Assembly: GCA_021734995.1 (NCBI GenBank)
Contig: JAIPHX010000004.1
Span: 18,115 to 82,114 of the forward strand
DNA from: Minisyncoccota bacterium
GTDB lineage: Bacteria; Patescibacteriota; Minisyncoccia; Phycocordibacterales; UBA9973
Length of the DNA: 64,000 nt
Direction: 5' to 3'
Below the pieces are notes generated by a model that worked only from the letters and a program-made list of their open reading frames with translations, was not told the DNA's origin and did not search any database. Positions 36,287 to 57,038 of this stretch are shown here, one piece after another. Position 1 is the stretch's first letter; every line of letters starts with the position of its first letter. Position numbers and translations under genes: made by a program.

Positions 36287-37732
36287 CTATATCATCGGCT
36301 CAACCTCTTGTGTAGCACTTACAGATTTAGAATTCCCTTCTATCATTGACTTTTCTTCAGCGCTACGAATAATAGTAGCTTCTTCTTCAGCGATAAGATT
36401 TGCAGCACTTTCTTTTGAAATAGTATATTTTCTACGAGAAGCTTCTTCTATTTCTTTTCTATATGAAGGATGAGTTGGCGGTAAAATTCGTAAAGTCTCA
36501 GCAGAAAATGGGTCATAAGATTCACCATCTATGGTCATCTTAATATAAAATTCAGTTACTGCTAGATTAATCATATCTTTCACATCAAAGATAGGAGAGA
36601 ACTCAGGTTTCATTTTTACAGCATCTTCACCACCAATACGAAAAGAAATAATACTTCCACAATTACCCAATACTGCTTGATGCACTTTTGGAATAATTTG
36701 ACCGACATATTGATGCGCCATTGTAAGATTCAATCCGTATTTGCGAGCCTCTGAAAGAATGTTTTCAAATGTTTGAGTGACCACATTTTGAAACTCATCC
36801 ACATATATATAAAAATCTTTACGATCTTTTTCAAGCATACTTGCTCTTTCCATACCTGCTTGCTTAATCTTTGTCAAAAAAATAGATCCTAAGAAAGAGG
36901 AATTTTCTTCTCCGAGTCTTCCTTTAGAAAGATTGATCAATATAATCTTTTCTTTATTCATAAGCTCACTAATATCCACCTTATTTTCTTTCTGTCCAAA
37001 GATATTACGCAACAATGGATCTGAAAGGAATTGCCCAAGTTTATTGACCAAAGGAATAATAGCGTCAGTATCAAACTTTTCAGACCAATCGGCAAATTCA
37101 ATAGCGAAGAATCTTTTGACCATATCATCTTTGATATATTCAATTACTTTCTGTCTATAATTTCTATCAGTCAACATTGAGATCATTCCACGCATTGTCG
37201 CATAAGGGTAATCCAATAAAGCTAGACAAGTAAAACGAAAAACGTGTTCTAGGCGAGGAGTCCAATTGGCACCGAATTGTTTTTGAAAAACTTCAATCAA
37301 TCCTTGCGTAAGTTGGAACTTAAACATAGGATCTACATTTTGCAAAGGATTAAACGAGATTGGAAAATTAATATCTGTAGGATCAATAATACATACATCT
37401 TCAATACGTTCTTTTGGAATAAAATCAAGCATTGCATCTATCACATCTCCATGTGGATCTATAAGACAAAGCCCATGGTTATAAGAGATATCTTGCCTTA
37501 AAAATAATTCCATGAGTTTTGTTTTTCCTACTCCAGATTTACCAATAATATACAGATGCCTACGGCGATCTATTCTCTTTATACCAAAAATAAATTTCTT
37601 TTCTTCTAAAGAAGCAACGTAATTTGTGCGTCCAATGAAAGACACCTCCTCAGGTTCTACTTTCCCAAAAATAGGAAGTTCTGGTGGTGGTGGTGCGTAT
37701 TTTATTATCTGTACTCTATTTCCTTTTGGCAT
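36287..37732 (-). CDS. FtsK/HerA-superfamily P-loop ATPase (DUF87/HerA-like; T4SS-coupling-protein-like)
   Basis: Walker A IIGKSGVGKT followed by the HerA-type CLIDPHGD motif; Walker B YIYVDEFQ. Paralogue of the next gene. Confidence 0.55.
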   Translation of the reverse strand: MPKGNRVQIIKYAPPPPELPIFGKVEPEEVSFIGRTNYVASLEEKKFIFGIKRIDRRRHLYIIGKSGVGKTKLMELFLRQDISYNHGLCLIDPHGDVIDAMLDFIPKERIEDVCIIDPTDINFPISFNPLQNVDPMFKFQLTQGLIEVFQKQFGANWTPRLEHVFRFTCLALLDYPYATMRGMISMLTDRNYRQKVIEYIKDDMVKRFFAIEFADWSEKFDTDAIIPLVNKLGQFLSDPLLRNIFGQKENKVDISELMNKEKIILINLSKGRLGEENSSFLGSIFLTKIKQAGMERASMLEKDRKDFYIYVDEFQNVVTQTFENILSEARKYGLNLTMAHQYVGQIIPKVHQAVLGNCGSIISFRIGGEDAVKMKPEFSPIFDVKDMINLAVTEFYIKMTIDGESYDPFSAETLRILPPTHPSYRKEIEEASRRKYTISKESAANLIAEEEATIIRSAEEKSMIEGNSKSVSATQEVEPMI

Positions 37733-37763
37733 ATATTAATATTCTAACATTTAAGTGATACAT

Positions 37764-40135: not shown

Positions 40136-42055
40136 TTAATTTTTAGTACCCTCTGTATCTCCCTTGTTTTCCGCTTCATTGAATTCTGCATCTCGCACTT
40201 CTGCGGGTTGCTCTTCAGGAGTAGCATTACTTTCAGGATTTGGCTCATTCGTACCAGCTTTAGCCATAGCTTCCCCTATCTTTGACATTTCAGAAGAAAG
40301 CTCTTCGGTGGCTTTTTTGATAGCTTCCATGTCATTCCCATCTTTTACTGATTTCAAATTTGAAATCTTTGTTTCTACTTCTTTTTTCAAATCTTCAGGG
40401 ATACTTGCTTCATTATCTTTCAAAGCCTTTTCAGCTGTGTAGATTATCATCTCTCCTGTATTTTTTACATCTACTATTTCTTTTTTCTTTTTATCTTCTT
40501 CAGCGTGGACTTCAGCATCTTGTTGCATTTTTTTAATATCTTCTTCTTTCAATCCAGAGCTAGCTTCTATTTTTATAGACTGTACTTTCCCAGATGCTTT
40601 TTCTTTTGCTGTAACATTTAAAATACCATTTGCATCTACATCAAAAGTAACTTCCACTTGAGGAATTCCTCTTGGAGCAGGTGGTACCCCATCTAAGATA
40701 AATTTACCGAGAGATTTATTGTCATTTGCCATTGGTCTTTCTCCTTGTACTATATGTATCTCCACTGAAGTTTGGTTGTCCGCAGCAGTAGAGAAAACCT
40801 GTGATTTAGAAGCTGGAATGGTAGTGTTTCTCTCAATCAATTTTGTGGCTACTCCACCAAGTGTTTCTATCCCCAAGGAAAGAGGTATCACATCAAGAAG
40901 TAGTACATCTCTAACTTCTCCTTTTAAAACTCCAGCTTGAACCGCAGCTCCTAGTGCCACTACTTCGTCTGGGTTAATAGACATGTTTGGAGTTTTTCCA
41001 AAAAAGTTTTTTACTGCTTCTGTTATGGCAGGCATTCTTGTCTGACCTCCCACCATGATTATTTCATTAATATCACCCATTTTAAATGGAGAAGCTTCTA
41101 ATGCTCTCTTTGTAATTTCAATAGATCTGTCTATATATTCACGAGCCAAAGATTCCAAAGTAGCTCTAGTCATTTTCAAAAGTAAATGTTTAGGGCCATC
41201 AGCTCCAGAAGTGATGAATGGTATATTTATTTCAGTTTCAGTAGTAGTAGAAAGTTCATGTTTCGCTTTTTCTGCCCCTTCTTTTAATCTTTGATGTGCA
41301 AGAGGGTCTTTAGATACATCAATACCTGACTCTTTTTTAAATTCCTCAGCAATCCAAGTAATAATCTTTCTATCAATATCACCACCTCCCATATGACTAT
41401 CTCCGTCTGTAGATTTTACTTCTATTACATCATCCCCAATTTCTAAAATAGATACATCAAATGTTCCTCCTCCAAAGTCATACACTACGATTTTTTCATT
41501 TTTCTTTTTATCAAAACCATAAGCTAATGCTGCAGCGGTAGGCTCGTTGATTATTCTCTTTACATCAAGCCCCGCAATCGCTCCAGCATCTTTTGTGGCC
41601 TTTCTTTGAGAATCATTAAAATATGCAGGGACAGTAATCACCGCTTCAGTTACTTTTTCTCCTGTTTTTGCCTCCACATCTGCTTTTATTTTTTGCAAAA
41701 GCATTGCAGAAATTTCTTCTGGACGATAAAACTTATCAGTCATTTTTACTTTTACTCCACCATCTTCACCGTTTTCAATTTTAAATGAAGCTGTTTGTTT
41801 ATCTTTTTGTACTTCTGGATCATCAAAACGATGCCCCATATATCGCTTTACTTCAGCTATTGTATTTTCAGGATTAGTCACAGCTTGTCTTTTAGCCAAA
41901 AGCCCAACCAAACGATCCCCGTTTTTTGCCATAGCAATCACAGAAGGAGTAGTTCTATTTCCTTCTACGTTTTCCACAATTTTAGGAGCACCTCCTTCAA
42001 TAATGGCTACGGCAGAATTTGTTGTCCCCAAATCAATTCCTATTATTTTACTCAT
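40136..42055 (-). CDS. dnaK: chaperone DnaK (Hsp70)
   Basis: [18 protein letters not shown]…, DLGGGTFD, and full Hsp70 ATPase and substrate-binding domains. Confidence 0.95.
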
Positions 42056-42174: not shown

Positions 42175-42693
42175 ATGTCAAGTAAATCAGACTATTCCAA
42201 AAAAATATTAGGTATTTTAGGCCAAAAAACAGCCATCTCTTTAGAGAATATCAAAAAAGGAGAAGACTCTAAAGCGAAATATGCTCTGACTAGATCTGTA
42301 AAAAATATGATTGAAGGAGGATTGGCTGAAATACACAAATCTACCAACCAAACTTTTTTAAAAATCACCCCAAAAGGTAAAGCAAAATTAAATTGTCTAA
42401 AATTAGAAGGTAAGGATGCTTTGGTTTCCAATTCTTGGGATGGTATGTGGAGGATTATTATTTTAGACATGCCAGAAACTAGAAAAAATGAGCGTGATAG
42501 TTTAAGATATATATTAAAGAAGGCAAATTTTGTTTGTATTAAAAATACTGTATGGGTATCCCCTTTCCCTTATGAACATTTGTTCTATAATTTAAAGAAG
42601 GACTTAGGATTATCCACAGAACTTATCATTATCGTCACAAACAAAGTAGACGATGATACTGCCAAAAATTTTTTGGAATCAATAAAATCATGA
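42175..42693 (+). CDS. winged-helix regulator, PaaX-family-like C-terminal domain
   Basis: N-terminal wHTH-like segment; C-terminal W.GMWRIIILDMPETRKNERDSLRYILKKANF…NTVWVSP matches the PaaX_C-type pattern (W.G.W…D.PE..R..RD.LR…GF…SVW.SP). Confidence 0.4.
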   Translation: MSSKSDYSKKILGILGQKTAISLENIKKGEDSKAKYALTRSVKNMIEGGLAEIHKSTNQTFLKITPKGKAKLNCLKLEGKDALVSNSWDGMWRIIILDMPETRKNERDSLRYILKKANFVCIKNTVWVSPFPYEHLFYNLKKDLGLSTELIIIVTNKVDDDTAKNFLESIKS

Positions 42694-43379
42694 AGATACA
42701 TAGATTTATCGGGGATTACAATTTGAATAAAGATTTCATTACTATTACTGATCTATCTCAAGTAAAGCAAATTAAAAATGTTTTAAAGTTAAATATTAAT
42801 GAACACATTTTTTTATCGGATGGGATGGGAAAAGAAATTGAAGCAGAAATTCAAAATATTCAAAAAGAACAAATTATGGTAAAAAAAGTAGTGGAAATTA
42901 TTACAGAAAAAGAAAATAAAAAAGTGAACTTGTATCTTGCTATCTTAAAGAAAGAAAACTTTGAATTAGCCGTCCAAAAAGCAGTAGAATGTGGCGTGTC
43001 AGAAATCACACCAATTTTAACAAAAAGAACAATAAAGACAGGTATCAAGAAAGATAGGCTTGAAAAAATAATCAAAGAGGCATGTGAACAATCTGGAAGA
43101 AATATTATTCCAAAAATAAATGAAATTACAACTTTTGAAAATGCATTACAAGAAGGACAAAAAAACGATCGTAAGGTGATTTTTCATTTTTCCAAAGAAG
43201 AATACTCAAATATCCCTGATATCAAAAGCATCGCTATATTTATAGGGCCAGAAGGTGGTTTTACTGATACTGAAATATCATTTGCAAGAGAACAAAAATA
43301 TGAAATTTGCTCTTTAGGTGACCATACACTACGAGCTGAGACTGCTTGTATTGTAGGGAGTTATCTTGCTTGCCACTAA
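42690..43379 (+). CDS. rsmE: 16S rRNA (uracil1498-N3)-methyltransferase RsmE
   Basis: PUA-like N-terminus and SPOUT C-terminus with IFIGPEGGFT; 229 aa; HRF at the N-terminus. Confidence 0.7.
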   Translation: MKIHRFIGDYNLNKDFITITDLSQVKQIKNVLKLNINEHIFLSDGMGKEIEAEIQNIQKEQIMVKKVVEIITEKENKKVNLYLAILKKENFELAVQKAVECGVSEITPILTKRTIKTGIKKDRLEKIIKEACEQSGRNIIPKINEITTFENALQEGQKNDRKVIFHFSKEEYSNIPDIKSIAIFIGPEGGFTDTEISFAREQKYEICSLGDHTLRAETACIVGSYLACH

Positions 43380-45115
43380 TACACCTCTTTATTATAACAC
43401 CCCTCACAATACACTATCTCTGGTCTATCTGGAGCATATGAGGTTTCGAATTCATTTGAGCACTCTTTTGTTCCGTTTGTATGCATATGTGCTTCTTTAT
43501 CACACATACAAGAGCGGTGCCAGAGTTTCATTGGGTTTCTTTTTGATAGTCTTTCGTAGTGTCTACAATTGGGACAGGTGTTTGGAACAGGAATTTTATT
43601 TTTTTTATAAAAAGACAACTCACTCTCTGTAAGTTTAAAAGCTTCAGTACATTTATGTTCACACTTACCTAAGTGTGAACAACCTATAATATTATTTAAT
43701 ATAGTATCATCAACATCTTTAATATTATCTGGTATACCTTGTGAAGGCAAATCTATCCTATAGTTCCTCTCTTCATCATCTTTCCATTTAAAACAAAGAT
43801 CTAGGGCAATATTTTTATTCAAAGGAAAAAATTCTTGAGCAGTTGATTCATTGTACGAAAAAGGAGACAGATCATATGGAAAGAATTCTCCATATTTATA
43901 TATTCTATTTTTTTTATCAATATATGGATTAGAATTCATTTCTTCTTTAATCTTTTCAATTAAAATTTGGTATTCCTCTTTTGTGTATTGTTTATTTAAA
44001 ATACAATATGACTTTTTTTGCAGAGAAATACAACCAAAAAGAAAAGAAGACCCTTTACACATTTCTGAATATTCTACATTGTTTGAGGTATCTACCACAT
44101 GCACAAACTTTGTATTTGATACTTCTTCAGGGCTCATCGCTTCATATACATATTGACTATTACCCATACCATAACAATCGTATATTTCTTTTGAGGAAAA
44201 AACCCATGCAGAGTATCTACTATTCTCTAGATCAAAACCATCAAATACCATTTTCGAATTTTTAGTATTTACTAGATTATCTCCTGTAGAATTTTGACAA
44301 CTTACTAAGTTTCCGTATTTATGTATAGATTGTTTTTTAATATTATCAAAAAGTTTTTTATACTCATCAATAATCTTTTTTGAACCTAAATCAATTTCCT
44401 TTAATCTTTCGAGATAAGCATCTTTTGAAAGATTTTCTCCCATAAACGTATATGAACTATTTCTTTTATTTATAATTCCAAAACAATTAGAGATATTTCT
44501 AGAGTTTGAAACAAAATAAGAATCAATCAATGCTTCAGATTTTTCTGAATAAAATGTATTATATGATTTTTCAACATTAAAAGCTTCGTATAAATTCTCT
44601 GAATAATGAGAATAAACTACGTCCATACATTTTTTTAAATTAACTGCTCTAGCTACATACATACAATCTTCTGAATCTCTAAACCCGTAAGAAAGATAGC
44701 AATTTTTGTTATTGTATGATTGGTTGGTATATGGCGAATTTGTACATTGTACAGTCCAAATACCCAATCTGGGTACTTTTAGTTGTAATTCTCTAAATAA
44801 TTCGAAAAAAGATTTTAAATTATCATATTCAATTCCAAAATCTATTGGATCCCAATTATCGCTATACCAACAATCTCTACAATATATCGTATAACATGAA
44901 TCTTTGGGGTACAAAGAAATGAAAGATTTTTTACATAAATCACAATCTCTTTTATACAAAGACCTTTCATTTCTCCACATAAATCTCCTCTGCATCCTAC
45001 ACTCCGGACAAAAAGTAGGTGGTGGTACCTTGATTTTTTGATAGAAAAGAAAGTCTTCTGACTCTATCATAAAGTCATTTTTGCAATTTTGACAGTTTTT
45101 AGTTTCTGGTGGCAT
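43376..45115 (-). CDS. Cys-rich paralogue family protein 1 (N- and C-terminal zinc-ribbon motifs, duplicated Cys-repeat core)
   Basis: N-terminal CQNCKNDFMIESEDFLFYQKIKVPPPTFCPECR and C-terminal LCPNCRHYERLSKRNPMKLWHRSCMCD…EIVYCEGCYNKEVY; about 30 Cys. Member of a six-gene family in this window. Confidence 0.6.
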   Translation of the reverse strand: MPPETKNCQNCKNDFMIESEDFLFYQKIKVPPPTFCPECRMQRRFMWRNERSLYKRDCDLCKKSFISLYPKDSCYTIYCRDCWYSDNWDPIDFGIEYDNLKSFFELFRELQLKVPRLGIWTVQCTNSPYTNQSYNNKNCYLSYGFRDSEDCMYVARAVNLKKCMDVVYSHYSENLYEAFNVEKSYNTFYSEKSEALIDSYFVSNSRNISNCFGIINKRNSSYTFMGENLSKDAYLERLKEIDLGSKKIIDEYKKLFDNIKKQSIHKYGNLVSCQNSTGDNLVNTKNSKMVFDGFDLENSRYSAWVFSSKEIYDCYGMGNSQYVYEAMSPEEVSNTKFVHVVDTSNNVEYSEMCKGSSFLFGCISLQKKSYCILNKQYTKEEYQILIEKIKEEMNSNPYIDKKNRIYKYGEFFPYDLSPFSYNESTAQEFFPLNKNIALDLCFKWKDDEERNYRIDLPSQGIPDNIKDVDDTILNNIIGCSHLGKCEHKCTEAFKLTESELSFYKKNKIPVPNTCPNCRHYERLSKRNPMKLWHRSCMCDKEAHMHTNGTKECSNEFETSYAPDRPEIVYCEGCYNKEVY

Positions 45116-45149
45116 ATATTAAAAGTATATATAATAAAGGGTAATTAGT

Positions 45150-46892
45150 CTAATACACCTCTTTATTATAACACCCTTCACAGTACACTATCTCTGGTCT
45201 ATCTGGAGCATATGAGGTTTCGAATTCTTCTGTGCACTTCCCTACATGTCCATGTTTGTCTTTATCACACATACAAGAGCGGTGCCAGAGTTTCATTGGG
45301 TTTCTTTTTGATAGTCTTTCATAGTGTCTACAATTGGGACAGAGCCTAGGGAGTGGTAGATTCATACGTTTGTAGAATTGTAATTCTTCAGGAATTATCT
45401 TGAAAGCTTCAGTACACTGATGGTTACAATCTTTGTGTTGACACTCAATGACTTTGTTAATAATGAAATCATCTAAATCTTTAATATTATCAGGGATATC
45501 TTCTGTTTTAATATCTATTGTATAGTTTCTTTCTTCTTTATCTTTCCATTCATATCCTTGTTCTTTTGCTTGTTCTTTAATTAAAGGAAAGAATTCTTGA
45601 GCGATTGTTTCATTGTAGGCAAATGGACTTAATTCACTTGGAAAGAATTCTCCATACTTATATACTCTCCCCTTACTATCTATGTATGGCATATCATTCA
45701 TGTGTTTTATTATTTTAGGAACTAGATCTTCATATTCTTCTTTGGTGTATTGTTTGTTTAGAATGCAGTATTGTTTGTTACGGAGGCCGATGCAGGCAAA
45801 GAGATTAGAACAAGATTTACACATCATGGAGTACGTTAAATTATGACTTACATCGATAGAGAAAGTGAACAAATTTGTATTTGGAGAAAAACCACAACCC
45901 ACACTTTCGTAAACAAGTTCTCCGTTGGCAACGCCATGTACATCATAAACATCTTTACATCCTTTTAAAACTCGCATACTGTAAGCTACATTTTCTGAAG
46001 AAGTTACATCAAAAGATTTTTTAACATTTTTTGAATTCACAATATTATTACCTTTAGAATTTAATGAATTTCTTATTTCAGCATATTTATGAGGTACAGA
46101 ATTCTTCATGCTATAAAAATCTTTTTTAAGCTTCTCGTTAACTACATATGACCCAAAGTCCATTTTATTTATTAAACTATTATATTCTTTAACACTTAAT
46201 TGTTTATTGTAAAAAAAGTTACTGGCATTAATTAAATTAGATGACATGAAACATTGGTTGATATTTGAACTTTTAAAAATAAATTTTGAGTGTATGCCTT
46301 CTTTAACTTGTTGTAAATAACTACATTCATTATTGTGGTAACTATCTAGTGAATTAGAGCATAATTCTGAGTCTTGCAACCAGTCAGAATCAAAACAATT
46401 ATGTAATCCAGAAGAGTTTGAACAATATAACGAGTCTTGACTTTCAATAACAGAAAAACACATATAACAATCTTTAACATTACCATTATAATTTCCATAT
46501 TCACTATTTAACTGTTTACCTTTTGTGTCTGCTGGTATTAACGGCACTTTTTTAAATAATTCATAAAATTGTTCAAAGAACGGATTTGAAAAATTATATT
46601 CTTTTGCATAAAATAGAGGATCCCATCTATCTCCCCACCAACAATCATGACAATAAACCTTAAATAAAGTTTCTTGATAATAATTTGTAACAAACTTTTT
46701 ATTACATAAATCACATCTTTTATGATACAAGTTTCTCTCATTTCTGAAATTCATCCTGCGTACCATCCTACACTCCGGACAAAAAGTAGGTGGTGGTACC
46801 TTGATTTTTTGATAGAAAAGAAAGTCTTCTGACTCTATCATAAAGTCATTTTTGCAATTTTGACAGTTTTTAGTTTCTGATGTCATATACAA
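45150..46892 (-). CDS. Cys-rich paralogue family protein 2
   Basis: Same terminal motifs; core diverged from paralogue 1. The termini (~110 bp at the 5' end, ~170 bp at the 3' end) are near-identical at the DNA level. Confidence 0.6.
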   Translation of the reverse strand: MYMTSETKNCQNCKNDFMIESEDFLFYQKIKVPPPTFCPECRMVRRMNFRNERNLYHKRCDLCNKKFVTNYYQETLFKVYCHDCWWGDRWDPLFYAKEYNFSNPFFEQFYELFKKVPLIPADTKGKQLNSEYGNYNGNVKDCYMCFSVIESQDSLYCSNSSGLHNCFDSDWLQDSELCSNSLDSYHNNECSYLQQVKEGIHSKFIFKSSNINQCFMSSNLINASNFFYNKQLSVKEYNSLINKMDFGSYVVNEKLKKDFYSMKNSVPHKYAEIRNSLNSKGNNIVNSKNVKKSFDVTSSENVAYSMRVLKGCKDVYDVHGVANGELVYESVGCGFSPNTNLFTFSIDVSHNLTYSMMCKSCSNLFACIGLRNKQYCILNKQYTKEEYEDLVPKIIKHMNDMPYIDSKGRVYKYGEFFPSELSPFAYNETIAQEFFPLIKEQAKEQGYEWKDKEERNYTIDIKTEDIPDNIKDLDDFIINKVIECQHKDCNHQCTEAFKIIPEELQFYKRMNLPLPRLCPNCRHYERLSKRNPMKLWHRSCMCDKDKHGHVGKCTEEFETSYAPDRPEIVYCEGCYNKEVY

Positions 46893-46913
46893 GTTATATT
46901 AAAACAATCCCAG

Positions 46914-47831
46914 CTAGAAATCAATCAGCAATATATTCTTTCCTTTTGAGTGACCTTTTTTTTGATATTTTAAAGCTTTTTTAAAGTGTTTAATATTAAA
47001 ATACTTATCCACAACAACCTTTATTGTTCCTTTTCCAATAAGTTTAACGATCTGCCCCAAGTCTTTTGAATCTGAATGAAACAAAAAATGCTTAGCTAAA
47101 ATATCATATCCTTCCAAATCTTCACTAGTTGGTTTTCCATTTATTGATAAATATTTTCCACCTTTCTTTAATACCTTAAAAAGAGTACTCTTCATTGAAA
47201 CACTATCAAGAACACAATCAAGATCTTTTATCTTATTAAAACTTGAAGTGTTGGTATAGTCTAAAATCTCATCAGCCCCAATATTATATAAAAACTTATG
47301 GTTTTTCTTTGAAGCAGAAGTATACACATACGCCCCTTTCCATTTAGCAAACTGTATTGCAAACAAACCCACTCCTCCAGCCCCAGCAGTTATAAATATC
47401 TTTTGTCCTTTTTTTAAATTAAGTTCTTTAAATAGAGATTGCCAAGCTGTCAGACTAGCCAAAGGAATTGATGCTGATTTTAAAAGAGATATATTTAATG
47501 GTTTTTTATATATATACATCTCTTTCGTCACTATGTATTCAGCACAAGCCCCCTGTTTCAACCATTCAAGAGATCCAATTACTTTATCTCCTTTTTTATA
47601 TTTTTTTATTTTTTTACCAACCTTAACAGCAACACCAGAAAAATCACTACCTAAAATATATGGCTTTTTAAATATATTATATTCTATTCCTTTCCAATCT
47701 ACAGGGTTTAATCCAACAGCTTTTACTTTAATTAAAATTTCATTATTTAAAATATCAGGGATAGGAATTCTTTTTATTCTTATATAGTTTCCTGATATAT
47801 TTTTATCTACAAAAATAGCTTTCATAATCAA
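46914..47831 (-). CDS. zinc-type/MDR-superfamily NAD(P)H-dependent oxidoreductase (quinone oxidoreductase-like)
   Basis: GroES-like N-terminus; Rossmann motif ITAGAGGVGLFAIQFAKWKGAYVY. Confidence 0.7.
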   Translation of the reverse strand: MIMKAIFVDKNISGNYIRIKRIPIPDILNNEILIKVKAVGLNPVDWKGIEYNIFKKPYILGSDFSGVAVKVGKKIKKYKKGDKVIGSLEWLKQGACAEYIVTKEMYIYKKPLNISLLKSASIPLASLTAWQSLFKELNLKKGQKIFITAGAGGVGLFAIQFAKWKGAYVYTSASKKNHKFLYNIGADEILDYTNTSSFNKIKDLDCVLDSVSMKSTLFKVLKKGGKYLSINGKPTSEDLEGYDILAKHFLFHSDSKDLGQIVKLIGKGTIKVVVDKYFNIKHFKKALKYQKKGHSKGKNILLIDF

Positions 47832-47833
47832 TT

Positions 47834-48556
47834 TTACAAAAAGCTTTTAAACCAAACCAATGTATTCTTAAACAATGAATTTTGTACAACATCTGAGTCA
47901 TTAAAAAGGTGTGTAGCCTTCGGGATAATTTTGAATTTTTTCTGATTTAAATTAAACTTATAATAATTAAAAGCTTTTTTAACCAATGTTCCATTACCAG
48001 CAACAGCAACTAAGATGGGACATTTGAAATTTTTGGCTAAAAAATCCCATTTTAAGTTATTTGTTTCATCAATTAATTTTTTACTAAAAACAGTTGTAAG
48101 CCCCCAAGGCATGATATAACCATCTAATTCTTTAATATATTTACCTATCTTTTTATTAAACATAAATTTATAAGACGGGTCCCATAGAGCAACAGCATCA
48201 AAATTTTGATCTTTGGAAGAAAAGATAACAGGACCTCCAAAACTATGCCCAACAATAAACACCTTTTGAAAACCAAGTTTACGAAAATATCTAACTGTTT
48301 GATCAACATCAAAACCGGAAGTTTTTAAATCACAGTCTATGAATTGACGCGCTTTCGGTCTCCAATCATAAAGATTCAAACGAAAAGTGGCAAATCCATT
48401 ATCCGCAAAAAAGTTAACAGCATCATGAATTAATTTTTCTTCCATATCTCCTGTAAGACCATGAACTATCACAAATAAAGGCTTAGCAAAATCCCCTTTT
48501 AATTTTCCATATAAATATACATCTTTAGCGACTTTAATTTTTACTAATTTTTCCAT
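47834..48556 (-). CDS. alpha/beta-fold hydrolase
   Basis: Nucleophile elbow GHSFGG (IVGHSFGGPV); 240 aa; start is 2 nt after the oxidoreductase stop. Confidence 0.6.
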   Translation of the reverse strand: MEKLVKIKVAKDVYLYGKLKGDFAKPLFVIVHGLTGDMEEKLIHDAVNFFADNGFATFRLNLYDWRPKARQFIDCDLKTSGFDVDQTVRYFRKLGFQKVFIVGHSFGGPVIFSSKDQNFDAVALWDPSYKFMFNKKIGKYIKELDGYIMPWGLTTVFSKKLIDETNNLKWDFLAKNFKCPILVAVAGNGTLVKKAFNYYKFNLNQKKFKIIPKATHLFNDSDVVQNSLFKNTLVWFKSFL

Positions 48557-48577
48557 TTTAAAATATATACTTTTTAA

Positions 48578-50305
48578 TTAATACACCTCTTTATTATAAC
48601 ACCCCTCACAATATACTATCTCTGGTCTATCTGGAGCATATGAGGTTTCGAATTCTTCTGTGCACTTCCCTGCATGCCCATGTTTGTCTTTGTCACACAT
48701 ACAAGAACGGTGCCAGAGTTTCATTGGGTTTAATCTCTCTAATCTTTTTTTATACCTTTCATCTTGATGCAATCTAGGTAAAGGTAAATCCATTCTCTTA
48801 TAAAATTCAAATTCTGATTGTAAAATGCGATAAGATTTCCCTGAAACAGAACATTGAATAATATGTTCAGTAATATCTTCTTTTGTATCCTTTATATCAA
48901 TTGGTAATTCCTCAGCTTTAATTGTCGGCATGTATCTTTTTACCTCTACTTCTCCATAATCTATACCAAACTTTGTTAAAAATTCTTTATCTTTTGGCAT
49001 TAAATCAAATAATACTGATTCAGTATAACTAAAAGGAGAAAATTCTGGAGGGAAAAATTCTCCATATTTATAAATATGTCCAACTTTACCAACATAAGGC
49101 ATATCATTCATATGCTTTTTAATTTTCTCTATCATTTCAAAATATTTTTCCTTAGAATACTGTTTATTTAAAATACAATATTGCTTATTTTTTAAACCTA
49201 CACAACCAAAAAGATCAGCCGAGGAACCACAATAATCAGTATATTCTGAGTTTATTAATGCTGGCATACCATAAATAGTAAAAAACAAATTATTACCGAG
49301 ATCTGAACCCCCTGTAGCATGTTCATAAATTAATTCACCTCTACCTTTATGTGTTACATCCATAGCATCTTTTAATCCTCCTGGACATCTAAAACCATAT
49401 TTTACATTTTCAACACCGGCACAAGAAAAACAATATTTTGCATTTTTAGAAGAGAAAATATTATCTCCCGTAGAGTTAATAGAATTTAAAATATGACCAT
49501 ATTGTCTTGGCAATTTTAAATTAAATTTATAAAATTCTTTTTGGAAATTAACCAAAGTTTCATAATTACCTAAATTTAAATCTTTCAACTTTTTTTCATA
49601 TTCCTCTTTAGAATACTGTTCATTTAAAATACAAAATCTTTTGTTTCGTAAATTAACACAACCTATACAATCTTGACAATTTCTACAATTAATTAAAAAC
49701 CGAGAAGAAACACAGTTACTAGAAAAATCACAAAAAGCACAATCATAATTTTTAGTAGAATCGATACACTCATAAATAATATTACTATCTTGAGCTAAAT
49801 ATGTATCGTAAATATCTTTTGATTTTGATATATTATTTGAATAAAAAATATTTTCAGAATCCCAAATAACAGAATATGAAAGATAAACATTTTTTACATC
49901 TTGAATCATATTGGCATACTCAGAATTTATATTCTTGCCGTTTTGCCCTACTGCTGGACGAGGAACATTTTTAAATAATTCATTAAATTGAGTAAAAAAA
50001 TCTTTATTAAAATCAACGTCTAAAGCATAGGTTTGTGGATCCCATTCATCTTTTTTCCAACAGTCTACACAATATACATTAAAAATAGATTCTGGACTAT
50101 AAACAGAAATAGTCTTTTTGCTACACAATGCACAATTTCTATGATACAACCTTCTTTCGTTTCTCCAAATCAATCTTCTAAAGAACCTACACTCCGGACA
50201 AAAAGTAGGTGGTGGTACTTTGATCTTTTGATAGAAAAGAAAGTCTTCTGACTCTATTATAAAGTCATTTTTGCAGTTTTGGCAGTTTTTAGTTTCTGGT
50301 GACAT
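48578..50305 (-). CDS. Cys-rich paralogue family protein 3
   Basis: Same terminal zinc-ribbon motifs; internal CxxCxxCxxC (CRNCQDCIGC); duplicated …C.LN.QYSKEEY… modules. Confidence 0.6.
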   Translation of the reverse strand: MSPETKNCQNCKNDFIIESEDFLFYQKIKVPPPTFCPECRFFRRLIWRNERRLYHRNCALCSKKTISVYSPESIFNVYCVDCWKKDEWDPQTYALDVDFNKDFFTQFNELFKNVPRPAVGQNGKNINSEYANMIQDVKNVYLSYSVIWDSENIFYSNNISKSKDIYDTYLAQDSNIIYECIDSTKNYDCAFCDFSSNCVSSRFLINCRNCQDCIGCVNLRNKRFCILNEQYSKEEYEKKLKDLNLGNYETLVNFQKEFYKFNLKLPRQYGHILNSINSTGDNIFSSKNAKYCFSCAGVENVKYGFRCPGGLKDAMDVTHKGRGELIYEHATGGSDLGNNLFFTIYGMPALINSEYTDYCGSSADLFGCVGLKNKQYCILNKQYSKEKYFEMIEKIKKHMNDMPYVGKVGHIYKYGEFFPPEFSPFSYTESVLFDLMPKDKEFLTKFGIDYGEVEVKRYMPTIKAEELPIDIKDTKEDITEHIIQCSVSGKSYRILQSEFEFYKRMDLPLPRLHQDERYKKRLERLNPMKLWHRSCMCDKDKHGHAGKCTEEFETSYAPDRPEIVYCEGCYNKEVY

Positions 50306-50337
50306 AAATAAAGTATATATAATAAAGGATAATTAAT

Positions 50338-51252
50338 CTAATATTTATCTTCAGGGTACAGATACCTCCTGATCTTAATAGAATAGTCTCCCATATCTCC
50401 TATTTTTTCTGAGATATCTGAAATAAAATATTTTTCTCGAGCTTCTTTGATAGGAAGATCTGTGTCCAATAAACCAACTCTCAGAGCAAGGTCATCAGCT
50501 GAAGCTGTAAGCCATAAACGCCAAGAAAACATTGATATTCTATTTGAAGTTATCTTATTTATATGTCTTACTATACTTGAAGTACAGTTTGCATAAAAAG
50601 TGTTGTACCATGATCTGTCAGTAGAGTTTAGCTCATTCATTCTTTCCAACATATCAACAAGTAACAACCGAGCATTTTTGTTTTCAGTTAATTTCACAGG
50701 ATACACATATACCTTATCTTTTCTAACATTTGCTCTTAAAAGCATTACATCTCTTTCGTCTGCTGGAATATACATCAATGGATACGTATGCAACATCCCC
50801 TTCCAAATACTAAAATTTTGTTCTTTAGTTTTCCGTGCTTCTATGCTAATAGCTAAAAAATCTCCGTTAGTAAACTCAAAAGAAAGAAAAGTATGTGCCG
50901 CAAAAGTAGCTTCATTAAAAGGCTCTGATACATACCACACTTTTTTGATCTCTCTTAAATCATAAGTTTTATCATAATAAGCAGGAATCATATCTTTTTC
51001 TGTAGGAAAATATCTAAAATTTCTGACATTTTTAATAGTCACAAAATCATCATTAAATTCTGCTTTAGCTAAGATAGCTAAATGCTCTTGCCAATCACCT
51101 TCTGTTGGAACTTCTTTGGAAATTTGCCAAAACACAAAAAGACAAAAAATACATATTAAAATATACAAAATTCTAAAAAATAAAGTATTCTTAATAAAAT
51201 TAAATTTTAAATTCATTATCTTACAAATTAATAGACTTCTTTGGTATAACAC
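50338..51252 (-). CDS. membrane-anchored DUF4105/Lnb-like protein
   Basis: N-terminal TM helix; the …WYNTFYANCTSSIV… segment resembles the conserved NCT motif of DUF4105 (Lnb N-acyltransferase-like) proteins. Assignment is tentative. Confidence 0.35.
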   Translation of the reverse strand: MLYQRSLLICKIMNLKFNFIKNTLFFRILYILICIFCLFVFWQISKEVPTEGDWQEHLAILAKAEFNDDFVTIKNVRNFRYFPTEKDMIPAYYDKTYDLREIKKVWYVSEPFNEATFAAHTFLSFEFTNGDFLAISIEARKTKEQNFSIWKGMLHTYPLMYIPADERDVMLLRANVRKDKVYVYPVKLTENKNARLLLVDMLERMNELNSTDRSWYNTFYANCTSSIVRHINKITSNRISMFSWRLWLTASADDLALRVGLLDTDLPIKEAREKYFISDISEKIGDMGDYSIKIRRYLYPEDKY

Positions 51253-52925
51253 CCTTCACAGTACACTATTTCCTTGCTTTCTGGAGCATAAGCTGAATCC
51301 ATTGTCTCTCCGCATTTTGAACAATTAGCTTTATAAAGTCTTTGGGATAAAGTATTTTGGAAACGAACCAGCCTACGACATTCAGGGCATTTTCTAGGAA
51401 TTGCAATATTTAATCTTTTTAATAACTCAAACTCACCTTTTACTATTCTAAAACATTTTCCACATTCACATTTTATAACCTCATTTAAAATATCATTAGA
51501 ATTATTAATATCATTCGGTAGATCAGAATATTTAACAGTAGGAGTATATTCATTTGGAATGGGTTCAAACCATTTTAAGTGATTTTCTTCACATTTTTCT
51601 TTCGTCATAGGAAAATATTGATTTGCCATTGTTTCATTATAAGCAAAAATAGAAAATTCTTCTGGGAAAAATTCTCCGTATTTATATACTAAACCCTTTT
51701 TACTAATATAAGGATTACTGTTCATATTTTTAATAATTTCTTCTTTCAGTTTTAAAAACTCATCTTTTGTATATTGCTTATTTAAAATACAATATTCTTT
51801 TTTCTTTAAATTAACACACCCGAAAGTATTTTTACAAGAAGTAGTGTAATAACAATATTCATTGTTTAATGAATCGGGATAATTCCCAAAAGAAAATTTT
51901 ATATTAGATGCTCCATGCCCTGCTACTGCCACTTCATACATTCTTTCAACATTACCTCCCCAACAAGTATAATCATAAGAATCTTTTGTACGAGGGACTG
52001 AGATCAATTGAACATAACGAGAATCTTCTACGCTAGTTATCATATAAGCATCCTGAGTATTTTTTGATTCATACGCATAATTACCGACTACATTTACATT
52101 CAAACTATTGGTATATAGACACCTATTGGGTAATGTAAGCCAAAAAGCTTTCGCTTCTTCAAGATATTTTAAAATGTTTGAGTATAAATTCAAATTTACT
52201 TTTTTCATAAATTCAAAATATTCTTCTTTGGAGTATTGTTGGTTAAAAATACAATATGATTTTTTCTTTAAATTCATACATCCAAAACAATTAATACAAG
52301 AGGAGCAATTTTTGGAAAATAAAACCTCTACACAGTTATCACATTCTTGAGAAAAAAGAGTTTGGTAACATTTATGCAGGCCCGCAGATTCATAACATAA
52401 TTCTGATTCTTTAATACGAAAACAATCCGCTGAATCTTTTAAACCATCTACAAAATCAGAATAAAAACAATTTTCGGCATAATCCACAAAAAAGCAAAGA
52501 TAACAATTTTTTAAATCAGAAGTATAGTTAGTATATTCACTATTAATTAGCTTGGAATAAGTAGAATCCAAAGACATGAAAGGAGTTTTGTTTATTAATT
52601 CTTCAACTTGCTCTAAAAAAGGACGAGAAGAATCATAATCCATACTATACTCAGTACCATCCCATTTATCAGCCCACCAGCACTTTGAACAAAAAACTTT
52701 TTGTTTCTTGTCTTTGTGAACCATTGAAATAATATTCAAGCCACAGCTATCACAAATTCTTTTATACAAAGAATATATATTCATGAAAGACAGTCTGCGT
52801 TTCAACCTACACTCCGGACAAAAAGTAGGTGGTGGTACCTTAATCTTCTCATAGAAAAGAAAATCTTCCGGCTCTATTATGAAGTCTTTTTTACAGTTTT
52901 GGCAGTTTTTAGTTTCTGGTGGCAT
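51228..52925 (-). CDS. Cys-rich paralogue family protein 4 (divergent C-terminal region)
   Basis: Canonical N-terminus; C-terminus …CSKCGETMDSAYAPESKEIVYCEGCYTKEVY; internal CxxCxxCxxC (CSSCINCFGC). Overlaps the DUF4105-like gene by 25 nt. Confidence 0.6.
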   Translation of the reverse strand: MPPETKNCQNCKKDFIIEPEDFLFYEKIKVPPPTFCPECRLKRRLSFMNIYSLYKRICDSCGLNIISMVHKDKKQKVFCSKCWWADKWDGTEYSMDYDSSRPFLEQVEELINKTPFMSLDSTYSKLINSEYTNYTSDLKNCYLCFFVDYAENCFYSDFVDGLKDSADCFRIKESELCYESAGLHKCYQTLFSQECDNCVEVLFSKNCSSCINCFGCMNLKKKSYCIFNQQYSKEEYFEFMKKVNLNLYSNILKYLEEAKAFWLTLPNRCLYTNSLNVNVVGNYAYESKNTQDAYMITSVEDSRYVQLISVPRTKDSYDYTCWGGNVERMYEVAVAGHGASNIKFSFGNYPDSLNNEYCYYTTSCKNTFGCVNLKKKEYCILNKQYTKDEFLKLKEEIIKNMNSNPYISKKGLVYKYGEFFPEEFSIFAYNETMANQYFPMTKEKCEENHLKWFEPIPNEYTPTVKYSDLPNDINNSNDILNEVIKCECGKCFRIVKGEFELLKRLNIAIPRKCPECRRLVRFQNTLSQRLYKANCSKCGETMDSAYAPESKEIVYCEGCYTKEVY

Positions 52926-52945
52926 AAATATATATAATTTTTTAA

Positions 52946-54688
52946 TTAATACACCTCTTTATTATAACACCCCTCACAATATACTATCTCTGGTCTATCT
53001 GGAGCATATGAGGTTTCGAATTCTTCTGTGCACTTCCCTACATGCCCATGTTTGTCTTTATCACACATACAAGAGCGGTGCCAGAGTTTCATTGGGTTAC
53101 GTTTAGCAAGTCTTTCTTCATGACGGCAAAAAAAACATAACCTAGGTAACGGTACTTTTAATCTTTTGTATAAATTAAATTCTCCTGAAGTAATTTTAAA
53201 AGAACCACGACAATATAAATTATTTTTATCAAAATTTAAACATTGGATTACTTCTTTTAGAATAGAATCATCAACATCAGATAATTTATCTTTTAAATCT
53301 TGAGACTTCATTGTGGGGATATAATCAAGTTTATTTAATTCTTTCCATTTATAACCCAATTCTTGTGCCTTTTCTTTTGTTGATGGAAAATAATCCTGTG
53401 CCTGAGTTTGATTATATGCAAATGGGCTTAATTCCGATGGAAAGAATTCTCCATACTTATATACTCTGCCTTTACTATCTATATATGGCATATCATTCAT
53501 ATGCTTTATTATTTTTGGGACTAATTCTTCGTATTCTTCTTTAGTGTATTGTTTGTTTAAAATACAATATTTTTTGTTACGGAGACCAATGCAAGCGAAT
53601 AGATTATTTGAATTATAACAATTGAAAGAATACTGCACTTCAGAAGAGTAATATACCACACTGCAAAAATACAAAGAAACCCCTCCTGCATCAAAAAACT
53701 CATAATTATTTTCAGACAAAAATACTCCTGGTCCACCATCATAACAATCTTTTGAATTAAAACCTCCCCAATGAACATATTTTGAATTTTCTAAAATATC
53801 CGTACAATCAAAACAATATTGAGAATTTTTTACATCTATTAGATTGTCACCTGAAGAATTTAAAGTATTTACTTTAAAATTAGCCCGATGCAAAGATTGC
53901 AAATACAAGCTTAAAAATTTTTCTTTTAATGCTTGGACATTTTTATAACTATCCAAATCAATCTCCGAAATTCTTTTTTTATATTCTTCAGCGCTCAACT
54001 GTTCATTCCACATACAATACGACTTACTTCTTAGGTTTGTACAACCCAGACAATCTGTACAATTAACACAATCATATAAGAAATAAGAATCAACACAGTT
54101 TTTTGATTGTATTGAGTACAAAAGATGATATGAATCAGAAATTGCTACAGAATCAAAACACAATTCAGAATTATTTATGATATAACAATCAATACAATCT
54201 TTAATCTTCCTAACTCTATTTAAATAAAAACTATTTTCTATTCCCCAAGAACCAGAACACATATAGCTATCTTTGGACTCATGTGCAATATTACAATAAT
54301 CTGAATTAACAGCGCTAGAGTTAGATAATGCCTGAAATGGTACATTGTTTCTAAATTCATTCCATTGTTCAAAAAAAGATTTTGAAAAATCATAATCTAC
54401 CCCAAAACTCATAGAGTCCCATTCATCCCCCCACCAATATTGATTATCGTAAATTTTAATTTCAGATTCTGGTGGATATAAACTAATTAATTTTTCATTA
54501 TGCCCAGGAATATTACAATCTTTTTTAAAAAGATTCATTTCATTTCGCCAGCATAAACGTCTGACCATTCTACACTCCGGACAAAAAGTAGGTGGTGGCA
54601 CCTTAATCTTCTCATAGAAAAGAAAATCTTCCGGCTCTATTATGAAGTCGTTTTTGCAATTTTGACAGTTTTTAGTTTCTTGTAGCAT
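52946..54688 (-). CDS. Cys-rich paralogue family protein 5
   Basis: Same termini as paralogues 2 and 3; internal CVNCTDCLGC. Confidence 0.6.
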   Translation of the reverse strand: MLQETKNCQNCKNDFIIEPEDFLFYEKIKVPPPTFCPECRMVRRLCWRNEMNLFKKDCNIPGHNEKLISLYPPESEIKIYDNQYWWGDEWDSMSFGVDYDFSKSFFEQWNEFRNNVPFQALSNSSAVNSDYCNIAHESKDSYMCSGSWGIENSFYLNRVRKIKDCIDCYIINNSELCFDSVAISDSYHLLYSIQSKNCVDSYFLYDCVNCTDCLGCTNLRSKSYCMWNEQLSAEEYKKRISEIDLDSYKNVQALKEKFLSLYLQSLHRANFKVNTLNSSGDNLIDVKNSQYCFDCTDILENSKYVHWGGFNSKDCYDGGPGVFLSENNYEFFDAGGVSLYFCSVVYYSSEVQYSFNCYNSNNLFACIGLRNKKYCILNKQYTKEEYEELVPKIIKHMNDMPYIDSKGRVYKYGEFFPSELSPFAYNQTQAQDYFPSTKEKAQELGYKWKELNKLDYIPTMKSQDLKDKLSDVDDSILKEVIQCLNFDKNNLYCRGSFKITSGEFNLYKRLKVPLPRLCFFCRHEERLAKRNPMKLWHRSCMCDKDKHGHVGKCTEEFETSYAPDRPEIVYCEGCYNKEVY

Positions 54689-54702: not shown

Positions 54703-56370
54703 TTAACTTATATTTTGTTTATAACAATCTTCACAAGCAATTTTTTGATAATTCCATTTTACATCATAAAAAGCAGTAATTTCTTTTTTACAAAATGTAC
54801 AGTAGTATAAATATGGATTCAAAACAGAAAAAAGCTTAAACTGATTTTTAATTCTAAGATCAAAATGATATCTCGGTAATGGAATATTATTTTCTTTATA
54901 AAATGCAAGCTCATTTCTAGCAACATTAAATCTCCAACCAGTTTCTTTGCATATGAGTGCTTTTGTAATAATATCATCCTCCACATCTTTTATATGGTCT
55001 GGTAAATCATCAGTAGATAGTCCTTCAATATGAGCCTCATTTATAGTAAGCCAGTACCCTCCCAAAGATTTTATTTCTTTTTCTTCTGTCTCTTGAAAAT
55101 AAAAATAAGCAGTTGATAAATTAAACGGACATAAGCTCATGTTATATGGCAGAAATTTGCCATATTCTCCTCTTGCCTTCATATCATTAATAATCTTATT
55201 TTTTAAATGATAAAATTCTTCTTCAGAATATTGCTTGTTTAAAATACAATATTTTTGTTTTTTGAGACCGACACATCCAAAACAAGAATCACATTCAACA
55301 CACAAATCAAGATATTCAGAATTTCTGGAAGAAGACCATATTGAATATTTTAAAGAGTAAGCTTGCACACAACAACTACAATTTCCCAGAAGCTCTGAAT
55401 GCCAGCATCCATCTGCATCAATATTTGACTTATTTTTAAGACCTCGAGTACAATTAAAACATTCTTCAGAATCAGATACTGTATTGCAATTATGACAATC
55501 CTTGGTAGACATAAGATAATTTCCAAAAGAATTTTGCACTTTTAAATTAAAGTTTTCTCTATGTACCACTTCTTTTTGAATTATTTCGTGAAATCTTTTT
55601 TTTAATTCTTGAACATTATCATAAGAACCTAAATCATATTCTTTTAGTTTATTTTCATACTCTTCTTTTGAATATTGCACATTTTCTATACAAAATCGTT
55701 TATTTCTTAAATTCCAAGACATAAAACAATCTTGACAATTTCTACAATCATATAAAAAATATGAATCTATACAATCTTTTGAATGATATGAATAAAAAAC
55801 CTTAAAACAATTGGAACAATCAGAAATTTCATAACATTTTTCAGAAGTATAAGAGACAATAGAATCAATACTATTTTTAACCTTAATATTTCTATAAGAA
55901 TAATATAAATTCTCACATTCTTCCATTGCCCTAGATAAATAACAATTTTTTGAACTCCATACATCATCACACCATTCACAATTAGTATTACTAGAACCCA
56001 TTTGGTGAGGTCTCGGAATTTTTTCTTGAAGTTCTTTTAGTTGTTCAAAAAAAGAACGAGATGGATTATAATCGCATCCATAATCTTTCGCATCCCATTT
56101 ATCTCCATACCATTCAGAGATAGAATAAATCGGGTATCTTGCATTTTCAGGCAAAATAGTGATTAATCCATCTCCAGATAAATCAGAAGTTCCTTTTCTA
56201 AATTTTCCAAAAACCCAAAAAGACAAATGTTGCTTTAATCTACACTGATGACACGTAGTTGGAATTTCAGTTTGAGTTTTAGCATACAAGTTTAATTCCC
56301 CTATTTCTATAGTAAAATTTTTTTGACAATACTGACAAATCTTATTCTCCTTTTGTGCCTTTATATTCAT
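54703..56370 (-). CDS. Cys-rich paralogue family protein 6 (most divergent member)
   Basis: N-terminal CQYCQKNFTIEIGELNLYAK…TCHQCR; internal CRNCQDC; C-terminal …YYCTFCKK…IACEDCY. The start overlaps the grpE 3' end by 29 nt. Confidence 0.55.
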   Translation of the reverse strand: MNIKAQKENKICQYCQKNFTIEIGELNLYAKTQTEIPTTCHQCRLKQHLSFWVFGKFRKGTSDLSGDGLITILPENARYPIYSISEWYGDKWDAKDYGCDYNPSRSFFEQLKELQEKIPRPHQMGSSNTNCEWCDDVWSSKNCYLSRAMEECENLYYSYRNIKVKNSIDSIVSYTSEKCYEISDCSNCFKVFYSYHSKDCIDSYFLYDCRNCQDCFMSWNLRNKRFCIENVQYSKEEYENKLKEYDLGSYDNVQELKKRFHEIIQKEVVHRENFNLKVQNSFGNYLMSTKDCHNCNTVSDSEECFNCTRGLKNKSNIDADGCWHSELLGNCSCCVQAYSLKYSIWSSSRNSEYLDLCVECDSCFGCVGLKKQKYCILNKQYSEEEFYHLKNKIINDMKARGEYGKFLPYNMSLCPFNLSTAYFYFQETEEKEIKSLGGYWLTINEAHIEGLSTDDLPDHIKDVEDDIITKALICKETGWRFNVARNELAFYKENNIPLPRYHFDLRIKNQFKLFSVLNPYLYYCTFCKKEITAFYDVKWNYQKIACEDCYKQNIS

Positions 56371-56983
56371 ATATATTTACTCTCGCTGGTCGCAAAACTC
56401 TTTCACCAAGCTTGTATCCTTTTTGAATTACTTGAGCTATTTTATGATCATATTCTTTTTTATCAGTTTCTACTACTTCTACAGAATGATGGAGATTTGG
56501 ATCAAATGATTCATTCTCTTTACCTATCTCTCGGACTCCATACTCTTCAAAAACAGCATTCATTTGAGAATATATATATTCTACTCCTTTACGCCAATTT
56601 TCATCTACTTTCTCCCATGATTCTTTGTTGGCAAAAGCCATATTAAAACTATCAGCTACTGTCAAAAATCTTCCCAAGATTCTTTCTCGGACAGCTTCAG
56701 AAAAATTACTCTTTCTTAGCTCTTCGTCTTTTTTATAATTAGCAAAATCAGCTCTTTCTTTTTGCCAACCTGCTAGATATTCAGATTTTTCTTTTTGAGC
56801 ATCTTTCAATTGCGCACGGAGTTTTTTGAGTGTTTTTTTTAAATCTTCTTCTCCATCTTCGTTGTATTCAAACTCTACAATATCTTCATCGGAATCCTCG
56901 CTGGAGTCTTGTATTTCAGGCATTTTTTCCAATTCCTCTTCTATGTTTGCATTATTTTTTTGTGTTTCATCTTTTTTAGTCAT
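56342..56983 (-). CDS. grpE: nucleotide exchange factor GrpE
   Basis: Acidic N-terminal tail, coiled-coil, and C-terminal …GYKLGERVLRPARVNIYE typical of GrpE. Confidence 0.8.
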   Translation of the reverse strand: MTKKDETQKNNANIEEELEKMPEIQDSSEDSDEDIVEFEYNEDGEEDLKKTLKKLRAQLKDAQKEKSEYLAGWQKERADFANYKKDEELRKSNFSEAVRERILGRFLTVADSFNMAFANKESWEKVDENWRKGVEYIYSQMNAVFEEYGVREIGKENESFDPNLHHSVEVVETDKKEYDHKIAQVIQKGYKLGERVLRPARVNIYEYKGTKGE

Positions 56984-57007: not shown

Positions 57008-57038
57008 AAAACAAAAAGCCCCTTGTGAGGGCTTTTTT
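57008..57038 (-). terminator. intrinsic terminator downstream of rpsI
   Basis: AGCCCcttgtgaGGGCT hairpin with a U-run on the minus strand, between the rpsI stop and the grpE start. Confidence 0.45.

Follow-up and report, generated by a model that had tools for sequence, protein, structure and literature searches.

Zinc-finger ends of tandem paralogues in a Patescibacteria Hsp70 locus, very probably homogenized by gene conversion

We analyzed a window of 64,000 nucleotides (nt) from a Minisyncoccota bacterium (GenBank assembly GCA_021734995.1, contig JAIPHX010000004.1), in which six co-directional minus-strand genes of 555–580 codons are located between grpE and dnaK. These genes, members of one protein family, are henceforth referred to as paralogues A–F. 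Five of them (A–E) share a nearly identical DNA segment at the 5′ end and four (A, B, C and E) at the 3′ end, whereas their cores are strongly diverged. The data below show directly that the ends were homogenized, that this happened at the DNA level and that it is recent relative to the cores. The cause was very probably repeated intragenomic gene conversion in short tracts, confined to the conserved ends that encode zinc fingers.

Near-identical ends around diverged cores

The paralogues and their end tracts are as follows.

Paralogue A, 43376–45115, minus strand: open reading frame (ORF) of 579 amino acids (aa), score of 933 with the family hidden Markov model (HMM)
Paralogue B, 45150–46892, minus strand: 580 aa counted from a TTG, matching an NCBI protein at 100% identity
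Paralogue C, 48578–50305, minus strand: ORF of 575 aa, detected with the family HMM
Paralogue D, 51228–52925, minus strand: 565 aa, homogenized at the 5′ end only
Paralogue E, 52946–54688, minus strand: ORF of 580 aa, detected with the family HMM
Paralogue F, 54703–56370, minus strand: 555 aa, divergent, of a separate conserved subfamily, with no part in the putative conversion
5′ tract of A, 44993–45115, minus strand: codons 1–41, first zinc ribbon; from mismatch lists and the 116-nt exact A-B match
5′ tract of B, 46764–46886, minus strand: from mismatch lists and exact matches
5′ tract of C, 50183–50305, minus strand: from mismatch lists and the exact 29-mer
5′ tract of D, 52803–52925, minus strand: from mismatch lists and the exact 29-mer
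5′ tract of E, 54566–54688, minus strand: from mismatch lists and the exact 29-mer
3′ tract of A, 43376–43577, minus strand: matches B over ~200 nt, with a unique ~45 nt patch near 43455–43500
3′ tract of B, 45150–45342 against A and to ~45302 against C and E, minus strand: from repeats D7 and D10 and exact matches
3′ tract of C, 48571–48730, minus strand: includes 7 nt past the stop codon; 101-nt exact match with E
3′ tract of E, 52939–53098, minus strand: includes 7 nt past the stop codon; 101-nt exact match running from 48571 and 52939
Intergenic leader of A, 45116–45149, minus strand: ~35 nt, ~94% identical to the leader of C (50306–50340)

The start of B is probably the ATG at 46886, which gives 578 aa in agreement with the NCBI record and with the alignment to the other copies, and not the mechanically called TTG at 46892.

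Anchored at the ATG, the first 123 nt of A–E are 85–98% identical, with 2 mismatches for A-B, 8 for A-C, 9 for D-E, 12 for C-D, 14 for both A-D and A-E, and 18 for C-E. The 29-mer CCACCACCTACTTTTTGTCCGGAGTGTAG is found exactly in all five copies, where 0 matches are expected by chance (0 in the shuffled sequence), and a diagnostic 23-mer has exactly four exact occurrences, against 0 after shuffling. The 5′ boundary is sharp, with ~10 mismatches in the 17 nt after position 123, and in all pairs the last Cys codons of the first zinc ribbon (CPECR) mark the end of the tract. Measured in 20-codon windows of the codon alignment, identity among A–E drops from 83–100% at the 5′ end to 40–60% by codon 50.

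At the other end of the genes, the last ~50–60 codons of A, B, C and E are 82–100% identical. Over the last 153 nt there are 3 mismatches for C-E, 5 for B-E and 8 for B-C (~95–98% identity). The start of the 3′ tract is pair-specific: it lies ~200 nt from the stop codon for A-B and ~153 nt from it among B, C and E. The A-B match spans ~190–200 nt and is broken by the patch that is unique to A. Neither D nor F has the homogenized 3′ end, and F is homogenized at neither end. Exact matches are up to 116 nt long for A-B and up to 101 nt long for C-E. Beyond the anchored tracts the copies show roughly one mismatch per two positions, and the cores are only 48–54% identical at the nucleotide level and 28–37% identical at the amino acid level.

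The tracts are mosaic and continue into the non-coding flanks. The identity between the leaders of A and C reaches the stop codon of the preceding gene and includes a shared 19-mer (45122–45140 and 50310–50328). Sites 24 and 30 of the 5′ tract separate A+B+E from C+D, and sites 55–84 separate A+B+C from D+E. The two partitions are incompatible, as they should be if several events overlapped.

An initial annotation of this DNA, made from the sequence alone, had described near-identical 5′ and 3′ ends around strongly diverged internal regions, and we recovered all three features. Its coordinates and lengths were right within ~10–20 nt. Paralogue F was not in its list, and its omission of D from the 3′ ends agrees with the absence of a homogenized 3′ end in that gene. 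The windowed identity comparison that it proposed gave abrupt boundaries and not a uniform decay along the genes.

Synonymous sites separate conversion from constraint

For each pair we computed the fraction of identical amino acids that are encoded by the same codon. It is 0.79–1.00 in the 5′ tract (A–E) and 0.84–0.94 in the 3′ tract (A, B, C and E), compared with the codon-bias baseline of ~0.6 in the cores. As an internal control for constraint we used a mid-gene block with protein-level conservation (columns 380–440, aa identity 0.60–0.68, and 0.97 for B-E), whose same-codon fraction is 0.34–0.66. Fisher p values for the same-codon contrasts go down to 4e-8. Nei-Gojobori synonymous divergence (dS) in the 5′ tract is 0.00–0.63, with the single pair C-E at 0.92. 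By pair, it is 0.00 for A-B, 0.21 for A or B against C, 0.27 for D-E and 0.4–0.9 for {A,B,C} against {D,E}. The 3′ tract has dS of 0.10–0.32, the cores have 1.05–1.83 and the mid-gene block is saturated. The comparison of substitution rates between cores and termini, also suggested in the initial annotation, therefore yields low dS at the ends and values >1 in the cores. Given this similarity at synonymous sites, protein-level selection cannot account for the identity of the ends.

This result bears on the explanation that purifying selection on the terminal zinc fingers, together with strong AT-biased codon usage, kept the ends alike with no recombination. It is true that protein conservation across the family is highest at the ends, where aa identity between genomes reaches 0.78, and that codon bias gives a high same-codon baseline. 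However, the protein-conserved mid-gene block has a codon identity no higher than this baseline and a saturated dS, the ends of members from different genomes have a synonymous identity of only ~0.5, and the end identity runs on into intergenic DNA. The explanation is further contradicted by the grouping of the ends by genome and not by subfamily (see below), and we consider it very improbable.

A third candidate tract was rejected. B and E are 87–93% identical at the nucleotide level over columns 380–430, where dS is 1.1 and dN (the nonsynonymous counterpart) is 0.03; because of these values we attribute the block to protein-level selection and not to conversion.

The GC content at third codon positions (GC3) is 0.34–0.39 in the converted ends, 0.27 in the unconverted 3′ end of D and 0.15–0.22 in the cores. 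Housekeeping genes have a GC3 of 0.19–0.24 and the ends of F one of 0.11–0.25, so that the value for the converted ends is ~2 times that of cores and housekeeping genes. The pattern is suggestive of GC-biased gene conversion in the ends, but no more than suggestive, as family members in other genomes also have a terminal GC3 excess, albeit a smaller one (+0.05–0.08).

Ends and cores give incongruent trees

We compared the window with 79 loci from other genomes (numbered with the prefix L), which contain 204 family ORFs, and built neighbor-joining trees of 142 family members from 80 loci with 100 bootstraps. The 5′-end nucleotide tree groups A–E as an exclusive clade in 91 of 100 bootstraps, and the 3′-end nucleotide tree does the same for A, B, C and E in 99 of 100. 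The core trees contain a window-only clade in 0 of 100 bootstraps, and the smallest split holding the window cores comprises 95–116 taxa. The nearest relatives of the window ends are paralogues in the same genome, whereas the nearest core relatives lie in other genomes (aa identity of 0.54 for A and L011, 0.54 for D and L077, 0.58 for E and L060, and 0.68 for F and L012). Because ends and cores give incongruent trees, we conclude that the paralogues are old and that their ends coalesced recently in this genome.

The identities of the window ends are 0.85–0.97 (5′) and 0.86–0.95 (3′), above the between-genome 99th percentiles of 0.81 and 0.78 (5000 pairs), whereas those of the cores (0.50–0.54) are near the between-genome mean of 0.48. 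Across the other loci, the average within-locus excess at the ends is small (+0.03–0.05 nucleotide identity). The between-genome 99th percentile is exceeded by 8 of 106 within-locus pairs at the N-terminal end, by 5 of 106 at the C-terminal end and by 1 of 106 in the core. Weaker, sporadic versions of the end homogenization occur in L039, L061, L049, L013 and L001.

In another scenario, whole genes were duplicated recently, after which the cores diverged very fast under positive selection while the ends did not change. The tandem or near-tandem position of the genes fits it. However, core dS is saturated (>1), unlike the low dS of the ends, and the cores are closer to members in other genomes and never form a window clade, which contradicts recent duplication. 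We regard this scenario as extremely improbable.

The source is a metagenome-assembled genome (MAG) of Candidatus Pacebacteria/Paceibacterota, and its repeats of ~100–116 nt have about the length of commonly used k-mers; the likeness of the ends might therefore have been created in assembly or polishing. Against this, the copies still differ at specific, patterned sites, and partial homogenization is also present in independent assemblies from other projects. Since two separately accessioned MAG records (n = 2 records, with proteins MCF7833840–48 and MCF7862903–11) contain all six proteins, identical and in the same order, we give an artefact very little credence. A metagenome scan with the exact 29-mer CCACCACCTACTTTTTGTCCGGAGTGTAG returned no match. 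A degenerate C-terminal motif retrieved four metagenomic contigs, whose housekeeping genes are only ~70–75% identical to those of the window, too distant for population analysis; the collections that we searched yielded no close relative.

A model of conversion limited to the ends

Gene conversion between paralogues is a well-known process in bacteria. In the model that we favor, the six genes are anciently diverged members of one large, Patescibacteria-specific family, among which non-reciprocal homologous recombination would have copied the first 123 nt (A–E) and the last 150–200 nt (A, B, C and E), with some tracts spilling into adjacent intergenic DNA. As the most protein-conserved part of the family, the terminal zinc-finger segments would stay similar enough in their DNA for heteroduplexes to be seeded and tolerated, and every conversion would raise their identity further. 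The cores, with ~50% DNA identity, would be too diverged to pair, and for this reason the tracts would not run past the domain boundary. The dependence of recombination on similarity would in this way explain why only the ends are affected. We infer, and do not observe, the recombination pathway and whether homogenization was selected or arose as a neutral by-product.

Conversion of the ends had been proposed in the initial annotation, and it is borne out by the synonymous homogenization found only in the ends, the incongruent trees, the sharp mosaic tracts and the spill into non-coding DNA. Some considerations weigh against it. Conversion events are not seen directly but are read from present-day sequences. 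With exact repeats as long as 116 nt, a short-read assembler could in principle mistake the order of the copies, though not the sequence of their ends. The end trees rest on short alignments of 40–56 codons. The 5′ dS values between {A,B,C} and {D,E} come from only ~25 synonymous sites, and part of the similarity between these two groups could be ordinary constraint.

If conversion is the correct explanation, the array offers a clear and quantifiable example of segmental concerted evolution in a reduced genome of the Candidate Phyla Radiation (Patescibacteria). Homologous recombination between paralogues would be active in this genome and able to decouple the histories of domains within one gene. 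Trees or orthology calls for the family would mislead when the ends are included.

Little support for a contingency or cassette system

The initial annotation went further and likened the array to contingency or antigenic-variation families. According to this interpretation, the flanks are conserved in order to shuffle or swap the cores, or to vary the copy number, of a host- or phage-facing protein, thereby generating diversity. Formally, it agrees with the flank-core-flank layout and with the tandem arrays of relatives, which reach 9 copies, and recombination within the flanks is evident. However, all six copies are complete ORFs with starts in one co-directional, tightly spaced block, and the 64-kb window contains no truncated or silent copies and no extra end fragments. 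Tandem Repeats Finder gave only short chance repeats and no phase-variation simple-sequence repeats, and promoter-like or terminator-like sites are not in excess. No paralogue matched a defense-system model (PADLOC). The middles, described in that annotation as diversifying segments, are ancient lineages with closer relatives in other genomes, and no core is common to two copies. A contingency function is not supported because the copies are intact and predicted to be cytoplasmic, lack silent cassettes and phase-variation repeats, and encode identical proteins in the same order in both MAG records (n = 2), and we judge it improbable. The flanks could nonetheless act as substrates for copy-number change, as also proposed there.

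An uncharacterized family of zinc-finger and beta-solenoid proteins

An AlphaFold2 model of B (mean predicted local distance difference test, pLDDT, 85.9; predicted TM-score, pTM, 0.86) consists, in order, of an N-terminal zinc ribbon, a second CxxC finger, two beta-solenoid modules that are each followed by a helix, and a helical zinc-finger C-terminus. The homogenized tracts correspond to the first and last fingers, and the fingers are marked by nearly invariant cysteines. The proteins contain 5–6.5% Cys, and their maximum 19-residue Kyte-Doolittle mean is ≤ 1.03. We found no hydrophobic segment or signal-like N-terminus in the paralogues, whose hydrophilic N-termini start with the zinc ribbon. 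Given the lack of a signal peptide or membrane segment and the zinc-finger composition, they are predicted to be cytoplasmic.

Each paralogue contains an internal duplication, in which the two beta-solenoid modules both end in a motif like NLRNKxYCIxNxQYSKEEY. It is visible in the DNA as repeat family D5, with two copies per gene ~450 nt apart (for example 49107–49211 and 49563–49667, and 51721–51825 and 52183–52287).

Homologues of B number >7,400 (clusters at 90% identity); every one is annotated as hypothetical, and nearly all come from Patescibacteria. A profile search retrieved 2,292 clusters at 50% identity (E ≤ 1e-30). Scans of the six proteins against Pfam and NCBIfam gave only sub-threshold zinc-finger matches. 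The Pfam gathering threshold was not reached, the best scores being 23.9 against 27 bits (C-terminus of D) and 16.3 against 24 (N-terminus of D), although the Cys spacing and the AlphaFold2 model are compatible with a zinc-ribbon or treble-clef fold. Our searches found no model covering the full-length family and no similar solved structure, and literature searches found no description of the family.

In a Brennerbacteria MAG and other Patescibacteria (L011, 3231–18798; L031; L055), 7–9 copies lie back to back, and in many cases the stop codon of one copy overlaps the start codon of the next. One of the copies in L001 lies between ftsW and murG. With its arrays of up to nine copies and its consistent place in the Hsp70 operon, next to the genes of two orphan VirD4/HerA-like ATPases, this unnamed zinc-finger and beta-solenoid family is a candidate for functional study.

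Gene order in the Hsp70 locus

Adjacent paralogues are separated by spacers of 14–34 nt, and the array is interrupted by three unrelated genes identified with Pfam.

Zinc-type dehydrogenase, 46914–47831, minus strand: between C and B
Alpha/beta hydrolase, 47834–48556, minus strand: interrupts the array next to the dehydrogenase gene
Lnb_N-domain gene, 50338–51252, minus strand: between D and C

The genes around the array, also assigned with Pfam, include the following.

grpE, 56342–56983, minus strand: directly upstream of F
dnaK, 40136–42055, minus strand: downstream of the array
TrwB/HerA-like ATPase gene with a zf_Tbcl_2 finger, 37764–40061, minus strand
Second TrwB/HerA-like ATPase gene, 36287–37735, minus strand
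dnaJ, 35155–36255, minus strand

The order in the window is rplM, rpsI, grpE, the array (F, E, D, C, B, A, with the interruptions above), rsmE and a PaaX-like gene on the opposite strand, dnaK, the ATPase gene with the zf_Tbcl_2 finger, the second ATPase gene and dnaJ. Paralogue F overlaps the 3′ end of grpE by 29 nt (56342–56370). Its ends are ~42–54% identical to those of A–E at the nucleotide level, and its core is 65–68% identical in amino acids to foreign orthologues that likewise follow grpE. The F subfamily is found directly after grpE in at least 7 other loci, and F is the sole copy in the window untouched by the putative conversion.

No convincing terminator was found inside the array block on the minus strand. 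Between rpsI and grpE, a strong hairpin of the terminator type (AAAAAGCCCTCACAAGGGGCTTTTT, 57013–57037, minus strand) precedes a T run, which suggests from sequence that grpE and the paralogue block form a transcription unit separate from the ribosomal protein genes on the rplM/rpsI side.

The locus resembles a super-operon that recurs in Paceibacteria: rplM, rpsI, grpE, family members, a PaaX-like gene on the opposite strand, dnaK, a HerA/VirD4-like ATPase gene with zf_Tbcl_2, family members, a second ATPase gene, dnaJ, cysS and an AI-2E transporter gene, and rplU. We observed it in the window (35155–58000) and in L002, L012, L017, L022, L024, L032, L046, L050, L060, L061 and L074. In many Paceibacteria loci the family members are located after grpE and/or between the two ATPase genes, and the ATPases are encoded within 10 kb of the family in 27 of the 79 loci. 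The ATPase finger is a significant zf_Tbcl_2 match and aligns weakly to the second finger of the family. For the majority of the VirD4-like proteins of Patescibacteria, a published survey found no type IV secretion system encoded nearby (PMC12102498).

The PaaX-like gene (42175–42693, plus strand) encodes a small protein with a PaaX central (Cas2-like) domain and a weak match to a CARF model. It is divergent and upstream of dnaK, a position kept in 11 other loci, and its product may be a regulator of the chaperone locus. Elsewhere in the window, a DnaB helicase gene (27577–30402, plus strand) carries an intein with a LAGLIDADG homing-endonuclease domain.

For the role of the family, we put forward an idea that is unlikely but possible: the zinc-finger ends could be shared docking modules for the locus-encoded GrpE-DnaK-DnaJ chaperones and/or the two HerA/VirD4-like ATPases, of which one has a finger of this type, with the divergent beta-solenoid cores giving different client or target specificities. 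If so, conversion of the ends would keep the docking surfaces of all paralogues co-adapted to their partner, and the proteins would constitute an undescribed, Patescibacteria-specific multi-adaptor system.

Comparison with known systems

The models nearest to the proteins are the Pfam treble-clef families zf_Tbcl (PF13451) and zf_Tbcl_2 (PF23477) and TIGR04272 (CxxC-x17-CxxC), which match the homogenized ends and the internal finger. The matches differ from true members in that they are below gathering scores, and none of these models spans the full-length family.

At the level of architecture, the array can be compared with Neisseria pilE/pilS, Borrelia vlsE and Anaplasma msp2, where conserved flanks surround variable segments and recombination depends on the identity of the flanks. 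Classical cassette antigenic variation uses a single expression site and promoterless partial donor cassettes, and surface antigens are encoded. The array likewise has conserved flanks around diverged segments, but in the 64-kb window it has no partial donor cassettes and its products are predicted to be cytoplasmic.

The babA/babB/babC and homA/homB paralogues of Helicobacter pylori recombine intragenomically at their 5′ and 3′ ends to give mosaics (PMC4552749, citing Pride & Blaser 2002 J Mol Biol 316:629), and gene conversion upholds near-identical ends around a divergent middle (PMC4552749). The Bab proteins are surface adhesins encoded at dispersed loci, whereas the array encodes predicted cytoplasmic zinc-finger and beta-solenoid proteins in one co-directional block of an Hsp70 locus. 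Phase variation through CT repeats and chimeras arising within hosts are documented for Bab, whereas the array has no phase-variation repeats and no chimeras were observed. The babA/babB and hom paralogues are nevertheless the closest described counterpart, since in both systems homogenized 5′ and 3′ ends enclose a divergent middle.

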